16,995 bases of DNA, taken from UHGV virus genome UHGV-1578124. One strand, given 5' to 3'. The DNA is from a virus. Of the stretch, positions 416-15,273 are shown in pieces. Both the position numbers and the translations under genes were made by a program. The notes under the pieces were generated by a model. The model had not been told where the DNA came from and searched no databases. It saw only the letters and a list, made by a program, of their open reading frames with translations. The stretch's first letter is position 1. Each line of letters starts with the position of its first letter.

Positions 416-608
416 GGCTCTTTGAAGTCCCTATATAAGCCCCTGTAAAGGTCTATAAAGAGCTATACAGACAGTTGGGGTATAGATACTGGGAAGAACC
501 TTAGAAGAGGCTACATAGAGCTATACAGGGCTTTTAAGAGGGCTGTTTAGAGAATCACTGAGAAAGGTAGGGAACTATAGACCAAGAGATAGTGACCATG
601 TTAATAGA

Positions 609-9702: not shown

Positions 9703-10074
9703 ATGACCAAAAGAACAAACAAAGGCCAGTTTAAAAAAGGTCAATCTGGTAACCCTTCTGGGAGACCAAAAGGTTCACGTAACAAGAGTTCTCTTGTAAA
9801 AGCTCAACTAACCATTGACAACTCAGCAGAGTTTGCTGCAAAGTTATTTGAAGCAATTGTTACAAGGGATGCTACAAAGCTGGCAGAGTTTGGACTCAAG
9901 CCTGATGAAGTCAATTTGAAGTCGATGATGGAAGCTGGTAAAACTATCATGACTCACTCAGCAGGTGAGATGAAAGCAATTGCAGCAGATGTTAAAGGTG
10001 GTGGTGAAAAGGGTGGAGAGAAACCACAAGACAACAAACCAACGTTCTCTGCTGTAGCAACTCTGAAGAAATAA
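9703..10074 (+). CDS. phage protein with N-terminal GQSGNPSGRPKG motif
   Basis: GGAGG 6 nt upstream of ATG; the basic glycine-rich motif is one I associate with a conserved phage protein family (recalled as DUF5681), not verified. Confidence 0.7.
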   Translation: MTKRTNKGQFKKGQSGNPSGRPKGSRNKSSLVKAQLTIDNSAEFAAKLFEAIVTRDATKLAEFGLKPDEVNLKSMMEAGKTIMTHSAGEMKAIAADVKGGGEKGGEKPQDNKPTFSAVATLKK

Positions 10075-11733: not shown

Positions 11734-11813
11734 CTCCGTTTAGCTCAGTTTGGTTTAGCAGCACTTGCTTTGGGAGCAAGGGGTCGAGGGTTCAAATCCT
11801 TCAACGGAGACCA
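11734..11813 (+). tRNA. tRNA-Pro (anticodon TGG)
   Basis: Acceptor CTCCGTT/AACGGAG; anticodon stem CTTGC/GCAAG, loop TTTGGGA; T-arm GAGGG-TTCAAAT-CCTTC; discriminator A; CCA encoded. Confidence 0.85.
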
Positions 11814-12217: not shown

Positions 12218-12284
12218 AATTTGGGAGAGAAGCGATTGCTCACCGATTTGTAAGGTGCAAGTCCTTAGCCTGAATAGAATAAAA

Positions 12285-12373
12285 TGCGTCGTTATCCCGT
12301 AGATGGAAGCGGTGGTGACTGTAAATCACTTGTCATTACGACTCGGTAGGTTCGACTCCTTCACGGCGCACCA
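12285..12373 (+). tRNA. tRNA-Tyr (anticodon GTA), type II
   Basis: Acceptor GCGTCGT/ACGGCGC; anticodon stem GGTGA/TCACT, loop CTGTAAA; long variable arm with GTC/GAC stem; T-loop TTCGACT; discriminator A; CCA. Confidence 0.8.
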
Positions 12374-12602: not shown

Positions 12603-12734
12603 TTACAGAAGACCGTTTACAGCAAACAATAAACAATCTATTTCTCTTATAAAGAAAAGGCGAAGGTTCGAATCCTTCACACGTTACGGCGTGTTGGTGT
12701 AATGGAAGCACTTAAGATAAATACGGTCTGGTAA
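12603..12734 (+). ncRNA. structured spacer element E4 with internal tRNA-like module
   Basis: Outer TTAC (12603-06) / GTAA (12731-34); inner AGACCGT (12610-16) / ACGGTCT (12723-29). Apical region 12662-12711 holds a canonical T-arm, an ACACG/CGTGT hairpin and a D-arm-like GTG-TAATGGAAG-CAC. Confidence 0.55.
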
Positions 12735-13618: not shown

Positions 13619-13647
13619 TTGACAGTGTTGTGATAATACGGTAAGCT
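13619..13647 (+). promoter_or_regulatory. sigma70-like promoter TTGACA-17-TAAGCT
   Basis: Hexamers at 13619-13624 and 13642-13647; the block TTGACAgTGTTGTGATA...TAAG matches the 11587 element. Confidence 0.45.
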
Positions 13648-13659
13648 TCGAATTATAGT

Positions 13660-13742
13660 ATGGGACGATGTTAAGACACTAAGGCATGTGCGTAAGCCTC
13701 CAAAACTTACTCAAAGGGGTTCGATTCCTCCGTCCCATGCCA
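13660..13742 (+). tRNA. tRNA-Trp (anticodon CCA), atypical 80 nt
   Basis: Acceptor ATGGGAC/GTCCCAT (perfect); anticodon loop CTCCAAA; T-loop TTCGATT; discriminator G; CCA. There are about 7 extra nt between the acceptor stem and the D-arm. Confidence 0.6.
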
Positions 13743-14762: not shown

Positions 14763-14975
14763 ATGAAGCCTTATGGTAGACATGGTAAAGTTGAAATTGC
14801 AAGTTGTGGTTGCTGTGCTTCTCACGATGGTGAAGAAGATTACTACAAGTGGCGTACAGACCATCGTAGACGCTTTCTCAGAAGAGATAAGAAGAAAGCT
14901 AGACAGGAATCTCAAAAGAATATTGCAGAATTAGTTCAAACGGATAGAGCAGCAGCCTACGAAGTTGTTTGTTAG
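14763..14975 (+). CDS. small basic cysteine-containing protein (70 aa)
   Basis: AGGAG 5 nt upstream of ATG; contains C-G-C-C; its last ~17 codons run through the 5' two-thirds of tRNA-Arg(ACG), so the true 3' end is uncertain. Confidence 0.45.
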   Translation: MKPYGRHGKVEIASCGCCASHDGEEDYYKWRTDHRRRFLRRDKKKARQESQKNIAELVQTDRAAAYEVVC

Positions 14976-15001
14976 GGGTTCGAATCCCTTATTCTGCACC
15001 A
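14925..15001 (+). tRNA. tRNA-Arg (anticodon ACG)
   Basis: Acceptor GCAGAAT/ATTCTGC (perfect); D-stem GTTC/GAGC; anticodon stem GCAGC/GTTGT, loop CTACGAA; T-arm AGGGG-TTCGAAT-CCCTT; discriminator A; CCA. Confidence 0.85.
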
Positions 15002-15019: not shown

Positions 15020-15247
15020 ATGCGTAAACTCATTATTGAAAGGCATAAAGATGCTGACAAGATTGCAACAACACAAGTTGGGGACACTGACTTCATTCTT
15101 GTAGGTTGGAAATGTGACCCAATAGCAGTTATGAAGGTTGTTCATGGTTTTGCAGGAATTGAATTTAATCAAATCATATTTGAAACGCTATTACCAGAAA
15201 ATCAGGATACGTGTAATAACGCATATGTCCTGACAAGAGTTCGTTAG
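15020..15247 (+). CDS. small protein (75 aa), paralog of 15292-15519
   Basis: AGAAGG ~7 nt upstream of ATG (MRKLIIERH...); the track ORF starts earlier inside the tRNA. Shares blocks with the next gene (GDT-FI-VGWK-DP, FAG-E, QVIFET-LPEN-DTCNNAY-LTRV). Confidence 0.65.
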   Translation: MRKLIIERHKDADKIATTQVGDTDFILVGWKCDPIAVMKVVHGFAGIEFNQIIFETLLPENQDTCNNAYVLTRVR

Positions 15248-15273
15248 GGGTTCGAATCCCTTATTCTGCACCA
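15244..15273 (+). pseudogene. tRNA 3' fragment (T-arm + acceptor 3' strand + CCA)
   Basis: A 31-nt stretch (GTTAGGGGTTCGAATCCCTTATTCTGCACCA, from 15243) is identical to the 3' end of tRNA-Arg(ACG) at 14971-15001; no matching 5' acceptor strand, D-arm or anticodon arm upstream. Confidence 0.65.

Follow-up and report, generated by a model that had tools for sequence, protein, structure and literature searches.

A probable phage tRNA-Trp built on a non-canonical plan in a Felix O1-like tRNA cluster

In the tRNA cluster of a Felix O1-like myovirus (Ounavirinae), a gene that escapes the standard tRNA finders very probably encodes a functional tRNA-Trp built on a non-canonical plan, a reading to which its sequence and those of its relatives lead us to give a probability of about 0.85. 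The gene lies at 13660-13742, plus strand, of the 16,995-nucleotide stretch of viral DNA analysed here (UHGV virus genome UHGV-1578124, referred to throughout as the window), and the seven nucleotides that appear superfluous in it are part of a conserved fold. In this fold G8 pairs with C65, giving an 8-bp acceptor stem on a 4-bp T-stem and thus 12 stacked pairs, as in a normal 7/5 tRNA; one unpaired A follows, and U10-G11-U12 would then pair with variable-loop positions 47-45 as a short extra helix, here termed helix X. Since helix X encloses both the D hairpin and the anticodon arm, the usual four-way junction would become two three-way junctions, with a conserved U-A-A connector leading into the D hairpin, whose GG normally docks on the T-loop. 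Base triples already bring bases 10-13 and 45-46 together in canonical tRNA, so that helix X could plausibly substitute for those contacts with the L-shape kept, which would be a geometrically reasonable arrangement.

Such a tRNA would share a transcript with the tRNA genes around it, have its ends matured by RNase P and 3' nucleases of the host (its CCA being encoded), and be charged by the host TrpRS through the anticodon CCA, G73 and A1-U72, after which it would read UGG. Once charged, it would complete a phage tRNA set for all 20 amino acids. As to why the design should have been selected, the leading guess is that the remodelled core and hinge evade a host factor acting on canonical tRNA-Trp, or else change decoding kinetics.

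The gene, its detection and its neighbours

Read on the plus strand, 13660-13742 is ATGGGAC-G-A-TGT-TAAGA-CAC-TAAGGCAT-GTG-CG-TAAGC-CTCCAAA-ACTTA-C-TCA-A-A-GGGG-TTCGATT-CCTC-C-GTCCCAT-G-CCA, which amounts to 83 nt with the encoded CCA or 80 nt counted to position 73 (Table 1). In bacteria the tRNA-Trp identity set, after E. coli and B. subtilis work, consists of the discriminator G73 and the A1-U72 first pair, and the anticodon loop of E. coli tRNA-Trp, CUCCAAA, is identical to that of the window gene. Direct reading confirms the perfect 7-bp acceptor stem ATGGGAC/GTCCCAT, the A1-U72 pair, G73, the CTCCAAA loop and the 80-nt length given in the original prediction, and the tRNA-Trp identity proposed there is borne out by the anticodon CCA at 13700-13702, G73 at 13739 and A1-U72. 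The surplus of about seven nucleotides ahead of the D-stem is likewise real, as 38 nt rather than the canonical 31 separate position 1 from position 32, and ten nucleotides (13667-13676) lie between acceptor position 7 and the D-stem. The canonical two-nucleotide connector (U8, N9) and the 10-13/22-25 D-stem are absent, as is the canonical 7/5 acceptor/T stack with its 49:65 pair, A49 standing opposite C65. Canonical loop features are present, namely the T-loop UUCGAUU, the GG in the D loop, and a 7-nt anticodon loop with U33 and a purine at 37; the variable region is 5 nt long.

Table 1. Layout of the gene in window coordinates (A3, the ungapped 22-sequence alignment described below)
Feature	Coordinates	Strand	Observation
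Acceptor stem 5' strand, positions 1-7, AUGGGAC	13660-13666	+	Pairs perfectly with 13732-13738; double-sided changes at all 7 pairs class-wide
G8	13667	+	Pairs with C65 (13731), giving an 8-bp acceptor stem; also formed in the MFE fold of the window sequence
A9, conserved unpaired base at the acceptor stem/helix X boundary	13668	+	Invariant in A3; A in 59/81 members
Helix X 5' strand, U10 G11 U12	13669-13671	+	Predicted pairing with 13711-13713: U10-A47, G11-C46, U12.U45
Single-stranded connector UAAGA (class consensus U-A-A)	13672-13676	+	U13 A14 A15 invariant in A3
D hairpin: 3-bp stem CAC (13677-13679)/GUG (13688-13690), 8-nt loop UAAGGCAU with GG	13677-13690	+	Stem covaries in relatives
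C, G26	13691-13692	+	G26 pairs with C44 (13710); G:C here, A:U in Felix O1
Anticodon arm: UAAGC/ACUUA, C31.A39 mismatch, loop CUCCAAA, anticodon CCA (13700-13702)	13693-13709	+	Stem covaries
Variable region: C44, helix X 3' strand U45 C46 A47 (13711-13713), A48, A49 (13714-13715)	13710-13715	+	
T arm: 4-bp stem GGGG/CCUC, loop UUCGAUU; stem directly adjoins C65	13716-13730	+	G-C, against U-A in Sf13
C65 (13731), acceptor 3' strand GUCCCAU (13732-13738), G73 (13739), encoded CCA (13740-13742)	13731-13742	+	

Standard tools pass over this gene. The 25 tRNA calls that ARAGORN makes in the window, spread over 11.7-16.9 kb, include none at 13660-13742 and none for Trp, and the Rfam tRNA model (RF00005) at its gathering threshold gives no match at 13660-13742; a permissive Rfam search yields only a tRNA-Sec (RF01852) match of 20.1 bits (E=0.097), against a threshold of 47 bits. 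The gene is likewise missing from the tRNAscan-SE-based annotation of Shigella phage ESh21 (ON528731), to which the window is 99.5% identical over the tested stretch. ARAGORN and Rfam, searched for a canonical 73-76-nt fold with a different 5' end, returned none, and the insertion reading stands. In the 60 phage records listed the element is never annotated as a tRNA. Over 55 loci carrying a long member of the class, ARAGORN called hundreds of tRNAs, just two of them for Trp, each being the long gene itself cut down to 73 nt, and in the fetched flanks of those 55 loci, with clusters of up to 38 tRNAs, no separate canonical tRNA-Trp was called. Because ARAGORN, tRNAscan-SE and Rfam all miss the class, tRNA-Trp may well be systematically under-annotated in phage genomes.

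The remaining tRNA complement of the phage is close to comprehensive. ARAGORN finds tRNAs for 19 amino acids, and none for Trp, in the whole 86-kb ESh21 genome; the 19, among them a Tyr tRNA with a homologue in the window, and the candidate gene together mean that the cluster covers all 20 amino acids. The tRNA-Tyr(GTA) of the window, at 12286-12373 (+), is itself uncalled by ARAGORN and by Rfam at the gathering threshold; relative to its tRNA-Tyr homologue in ESh21 (44370-44457), which ARAGORN does call, one anticodon-stem pair has changed in compensatory fashion from C-G to T-A.

Several other tRNA-like features of the window may be recorded here. Between tRNA-Asn and tRNA-Tyr, a 58-nt segment at 12220-12277 (+) that is absent from ESh21 includes AAGGTGCAAGTCCTT, which resembles a T-arm, and may be what is left of a tRNA. 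At 12612-12686 (+) a weak Rfam tRNA match (30.9 bits, just over threshold), on which ARAGORN is silent, has a good T-arm, GAAGGTTCGAATCCTTC, with a poor acceptor and no clear anticodon arm, and may be a degenerate or non-canonical tRNA. A tRNA-like match at 15202-15273 (+), which scores 20.3 bits with the class model R1 introduced below, has a 3' half, TAGGGGTTCGAATCCCTTATTCTGCACCA, that duplicates the 3' half of tRNA-Arg(ACG) (14925-15001) and a 5' half that forms no acceptor stem; it is probably a remnant. Finally, the tRNA-Pro(UGG) at 11734-11813 (+) is 80 nt long, with its anticodon at position 38 and extra D-region bases, and is detected by ARAGORN and Rfam.

Fold and covariation

Two alignments carry the evidence for the fold. 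A2 is a mixed alignment of 28 sequences, hand-segmented and N-padded with registers chosen by hand, and A3 comprises 22 equal-length ungapped sequences, so that it is without alignment freedom. Position 8 pairs with position 65 in standard fashion in 65 of 81 class members (GC 32, UA 22, UG 5, CG 4, AU 2) and in all 22 sequences of A3, where four Watson-Crick types (GC, UA, CG and AU) are represented; position 49 is always an unpaired A and never pairs with 65 in the class. With the register of helix X fixed, full complementarity is seen in 20 of 36 distinct triplet combinations, among them AGC/GCT, AAC/GTT, GGG/CCC, GCA/TGC, GTT/AAC and GCG/CGC, where permutation gives a mean of 4.3 and a maximum of 13, with 0 of 10000 permutations reaching 20. 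The full structure is 90.6% paired in A2 against 65.7% when shuffled (0/500), and helix X alone is 84.5% paired against 54.1% (0/500), falling to 16-39% when slid; the D-stem cells of A2 are 100% paired and the T-stem is 99-100% paired in both alignments. In A3 pairing amounts to 92.3% for the full structure, whose covariation score is 0.88 versus 0.25, and to 92.4% for helix X, each of whose three pairs shows double-sided changes. Run unguided on A3, RNAalifold returns an 8-bp acceptor stem, helix X, a 6-bp D-stem, an open 31.39 and a 4-bp T-stem, with compensatory changes at 21 of its 25 pairs. The single-stranded elements are conserved too: A9 and U13-A14-A15 are invariant in A3 though absent from the search pattern, and across the class helix X is followed by TAA in 47 of 81 members and by TTA in 19.

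How the window gene fits this class is a separate matter. A covariance model (R1) was built from the 22 sequences of A3, which are unrelated metagenomic sequences with no Felix-type member among them. It matches the window gene over its full length (model positions 1-82) at 71.0 bits (E=4.3e-22), against 39.9 bits for the best of the window's canonical tRNAs. The window gene belongs to this long-connector phage tRNA-Trp class. Its predicted helix X consists of U-A, G-C and U.U, the last of which also occurs in 5 of the 22 A3 members, and because these bases are essentially invariant within the Felix type, helix X in the window is supported by homology to the class. Folded as a single sequence, the window gene gains no stability over its shuffles (z = -0.81). 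Most class members have a 6-7-bp D-stem with a UGG-centred loop, on account of which the Felix-type D hairpin, with 3 bp and an 8-nt loop, is to be regarded as derived. Other ways of pairing the D-arm (ATG/CAT and TGT/ACA for the window gene, CTTA/TAAG for the Bacillus type described below) were tried and rejected, as they are not conserved in relatives.

The C31.A39 mismatch is a class trait. Positions 31 and 39 form C.A, A.C or C.C in 50 of 81 members and are unpaired in 19 of the 22 A3 sequences, and the occurrence of both C.A and A.C orientations suggests either a selected A.C pair or what would effectively be a 9-nt loop (CCUCCAAAA). A phage tRNA-Trp of canonical length, found at another locus (L153), has the same loop CCUCCAAAA; the corresponding positions 31 and 39 of the window gene are 13697 and 13705.

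Occurrence of the design in phages

The element is found in 245 phage records, in 231 of them at a coverage of at least 80% (about 230 Felix O1-like genomes). Ten representatives from the Ounavirinae, drawn from Felixounavirus, Mooglevirus, Suspvirus and the distant Pectobacterium phage Arno18, were aligned, and the stems covary among them: in the D-stem CAC/GUG becomes CUC/GAG in Felix O1 and UAC/GUG in Arno18, in the anticodon stem GUAAG/CUUAC alternates with AACGG/CCGUU and GUAGG/CCUAC, and in the T-stem G-C becomes U-A in Sf13. The 26:44 pair similarly changes from G:C in the window to A:U in Felix O1. The linker CGAUGUUAAG (DNA CGATGTTAAG) is invariant, even in Arno18, with the sole exception of one U-to-C (T-to-C) change in PC79-13, where U10 is C and one helix X pair is broken. 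That the linker is near-invariant while the stems covary means that this is not a decaying pseudogene, and the covariation of the partners of the extra bases across the wider class places those bases in the mature fold. Hence, of the three options originally offered for the insertion, functional expansion finds support and a processing feature and a pseudogene do not, the extra bases being invariant in Ounavirinae and their partners covarying class-wide. In Arno18 (locus L002, 606-691) and Yersinia phage P778 (locus L126, 509-594) the acceptor 3' strand reads GTCC-T-CGC, with one bulged T opposite GCGGGAC. The linker 15-mer GGGACGAYGTTAAGA has 114 matches in IMG/VR, mostly due to chance, 83 of them being without a T-loop; the tRNA-like matches are all Ounavirinae.

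Beyond this subfamily, a partial BLAST match led to Bacillus phages, in which an uncalled gap between tRNA-Leu and tRNA-Met holds the same plan: GGGGGAG-A-GA-AGC-TTAAA-GAC-GAGAGGTAA-GTC-A-GTGGT-CTCCAAA-ACCAC-C-GCT-A-A-GAGG-TTCGATT-CCTC-C-CTCCCCT-G-CCA. This Bacillus type has A8.C65, which is not a standard pair, and two unpaired bases before helix X instead of one. Some GenBank records annotate it as an 84-nt tRNA-Trp(cca), and other Bacillus-phage records omit it, one of them annotated with tRNAscan-SE 1.21. Directly after the long tRNA-Trp of Bacillus phage BCP8-2 (locus L127) lies a second uncalled tRNA-like gene, at 447-531 (+), which reads GCGGAAT...AATCCGC-G-CCA with a normal T-arm and in which a 7-bp CTATCAG/CTGATAG closing a 14-nt loop replaces the anticodon arm.

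Pattern scans of IMG/VR, of the genomes of 185,579 species and of JGI/ENA metagenomes extend the class further. A pattern requiring TTAA-R-GAC finds the Bacillus type and misses the Felix type; the sampling patterns required A48-A49 and a GGTTCRANTCC T-arm, and the largest scan also G73-CCA. More than 90 distinct relatives with the same plan were recovered from phage, metagenome and IMG/VR contigs. Among 109 unique Trp-like sequences, 92 have a 1-to-32 distance of at least 36, the 5' half having been unconstrained and the A48-A49 requirement favouring the class, and class frequencies in general are biased because the sample was drawn with these sequence patterns. Further members come from Vequintavirinae (Av-05, where the gene is unannotated), from contigs the size of jumbo phages and from numerous uncultured contigs. 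The 185,579 species' genomes yielded just three convincing members (a Dependentiae MAG, Paenibacillus and an Uhrbacteria MAG), and the class is thus almost confined to phages and rare in cellular genomes. In three uncultured phage clusters a tRNA that ARAGORN calls 'tRNA-Pyl' (anticodon CTA, amber-suppressor-type) stands beside the long tRNA-Trp (L311, 222-297; L403, 187-260; L395, 9301-9375), and another locus, L406, additionally encodes a tmRNA.

The design is also nearly Trp-specific. The first pair, 1:72, is AU in 50, GU in 23 and GC in 8 of 81 class members, and every long member recovered by a pattern that required neither G73 nor CCA has both. An anticodon-agnostic descriptor search over 418 fetched loci and the window gave 39 unique matches, 37 of them with the anticodon CCA; of the other two, the ordinary tRNA-Pro of the window is a false positive and a tRNA-Gly(UCC) with U73 is genuine, by virtue of which the architecture is not strictly limited to Trp. 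This tRNA-Gly(UCC) is located at 9828-9910 (+) of L410 (IMGVR_UViG_3300035698_004752), about 280 nt downstream of the same contig's long tRNA-Trp, and has a GCG... acceptor and an 8/4 stack with helix X (GCT/AGC).

Known designs, alternatives and implications

Compared with canonical class I tRNA-Trp (RF00005), the window gene shares the CUCCAAA loop, A1-U72, G73, CCA, the T-loop UUCGAUU, the D-loop GG, a 5-nt variable region and 12 stacked pairs, but it is 8/4 rather than 7/5, lacks U8, has a connector of 9-10 nt where 2 is usual, appears to pair its bases 10-12 with 45-47 instead of 22-25, leaves A48 and A49 unpaired and carries the 31.39 mismatch. The (8/4) tRNAs and allo-tRNAs (Mukai et al. 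2017, PMC5389517) likewise combine an 8-bp acceptor with a 4-bp T-stem and occur in phage tRNA clusters, and most class members resemble allo-tRNAs in having a long D-stem with a very small D-loop, in contrast to the 3-bp D-stem and 8-nt D-loop of the window gene. Those tRNAs belong to the Ser and His (and Cys/Sec-like) species, with long variable arms in the allo-tRNAs (PMC5389517, PMC7609411), whereas the window gene has neither a long variable arm nor Ser/His identity, its variable region being 5 nt, its anticodon CCA and its discriminator G73. Trp, a long acceptor-to-D connector and a connector/variable-loop helix are unmentioned in PMC5389517 and PMC7609411. Similarly, tRNA-Sec (RF01852) shares with the window gene an extended acceptor, a 4-bp T-stem (in the eukaryotic/archaeal type) and a 26:44-type extra pair on the anticodon stem, and with most class members a 6-bp D-stem, but differs in its 13 acceptor/T pairs (12 in the window), its UCA anticodon (CCA in the window), its long variable arm and its want of helix X. 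The Hirsh UGA-suppressor and hinge mutants are also tRNA-Trp forms with a D-arm or hinge unlike wild type, but they are single-base laboratory mutants with a canonical fold, whereas in the window class the entire core has been rebuilt and is conserved in nature. Among described tRNAs the closest are the (8/4) tRNAs/allo-tRNAs of Mukai et al. and tRNA-Sec.

No description of this tRNA design was found in the accessible full-text literature, subscription-only literature lying outside the scope of the search. What is already known is a Bacillus-phage gene annotated as tRNA-Trp in some records, and the architecture is apparently undescribed. A paper on retron Eco2, which lists tRNA-Trp as one of several host tRNAs that are cleaved and reports that most Felixounavirus species escape restriction, was considered as a lead and set aside as uninformative on both counts.

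Whether the gene is a decaying tRNA-Trp in which an insertion disrupted the D-arm region and drift has followed might be asked in view of its rejection by ARAGORN and Rfam, its absence from the tRNAscan-SE annotation of ESh21, its short D-stem, C31.A39 mismatch and weak fold z-score, and the tRNA remnants in the same cluster. This is very improbable, given the near-invariant linker amid covarying stems across Ounavirinae, a plan kept by compensatory changes in more than 90 diverse sequences, the class-model score of 71 bits and, by the ARAGORN scan of ESh21, the status of sole Trp gene in the genome. More remote still is the proposal that the stretch encodes a small protein, contains a promoter or is a mere spacer: a few GenBank records do annotate a 'hypothetical protein' or 'promoter' there, and TTGACA occurs at 13619 with a weak promoter-like match at 13630-13659, but the substitution pattern is that of paired RNA stems rather than codons, the annotated ORFs lie on different strands and frames between records, and promoter-like matches in the region number 11 against 12.2 in shuffles.

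Two further alternatives grant the fold and dispute its use. A tRNA-shaped RNA acting outside translation, as a regulatory RNA or as a sponge or decoy drawing off TrpRS, a host nuclease that attacks tRNAs or some other factor that binds tRNA, would suit the remodelled core, the near-confinement to phages and the unusually frequent 31.39 mismatch; it is nonetheless unlikely, since U33, the CCA anticodon, A37, the 7-nt loop, the T-loop, the GG, G73, the CCA end and 12 stacked pairs are all kept and the gene supplies precisely the single amino acid that large phage tRNA sets otherwise lack. Moreover, the plan is shared by a tRNA-Gly(UCC) that has U73 and an acceptor of Gly type, a finding more in keeping with a scaffold for translation in general than with a decoy specific to Trp. 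The Hirsh suppressor, a tRNA-Trp with G24A, reportedly lets a CCA anticodon read UGA, and an altered hinge might likewise make the phage product a stop-codon readthrough or recoding tRNA, a doubtful reading. The class rebuilds exactly the D-arm/hinge region and is nearly Trp-specific, and hinge mutations in tRNA-Trp and tRNA-Leu alter decoding fidelity and speed (PMC11805395). Against this, stop usage in ESh21 is ordinary (TAA 57, TGA 19 and TAG 10 in 86 long ORFs), reading frames in that genome do not run on far past TGA, the median being 4 codons to the next stop, and its stop-codon usage over those 86 ORFs shows no sign of TGA avoidance or recoding.

A functional tRNA-Trp on a non-canonical plan thus remains the preferred reading of the window gene. 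Taken with its relatives, it leads us to a broader interpretation that we hold to be slightly favoured on balance, namely that these genes make up an undescribed class of phage elongator tRNA, nearly always Trp and once Gly, in which two three-way junctions are joined by a 3-bp helix (10-12/45-47) on an 8/4 stack, often with an A.C closing the anticodon stem; that tRNA-Trp is consequently under-annotated in phages; and that the design may escape a host factor or retune UGG/UGA decoding.

The L-shaped four-way-junction cloverleaf is among the most conserved RNA architectures, and its natural exceptions (tRNA-Sec, tRNA-Pyl, allo-tRNAs and mitochondrial tRNAs) have taught what synthetases, EF-Tu and the ribosome tolerate. 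If the interpretation is correct, the phage class would add a covariation-supported tRNA scaffold with an extra helix, apparently working in E. coli, Salmonella, Shigella and Bacillus, that would be useful to tRNA structural biology and to orthogonal tRNA engineering. Likewise, it would explain the apparent lack of tRNA-Trp in many phage tRNA clusters and expose a blind spot of annotation tools. More broadly, the near-restriction of the design to phages and to Trp would suggest that some pressure specific to Trp, for instance a host defence or decoding kinetics, has gone unrecognised, and this would be testable in Felix O1-type phages.
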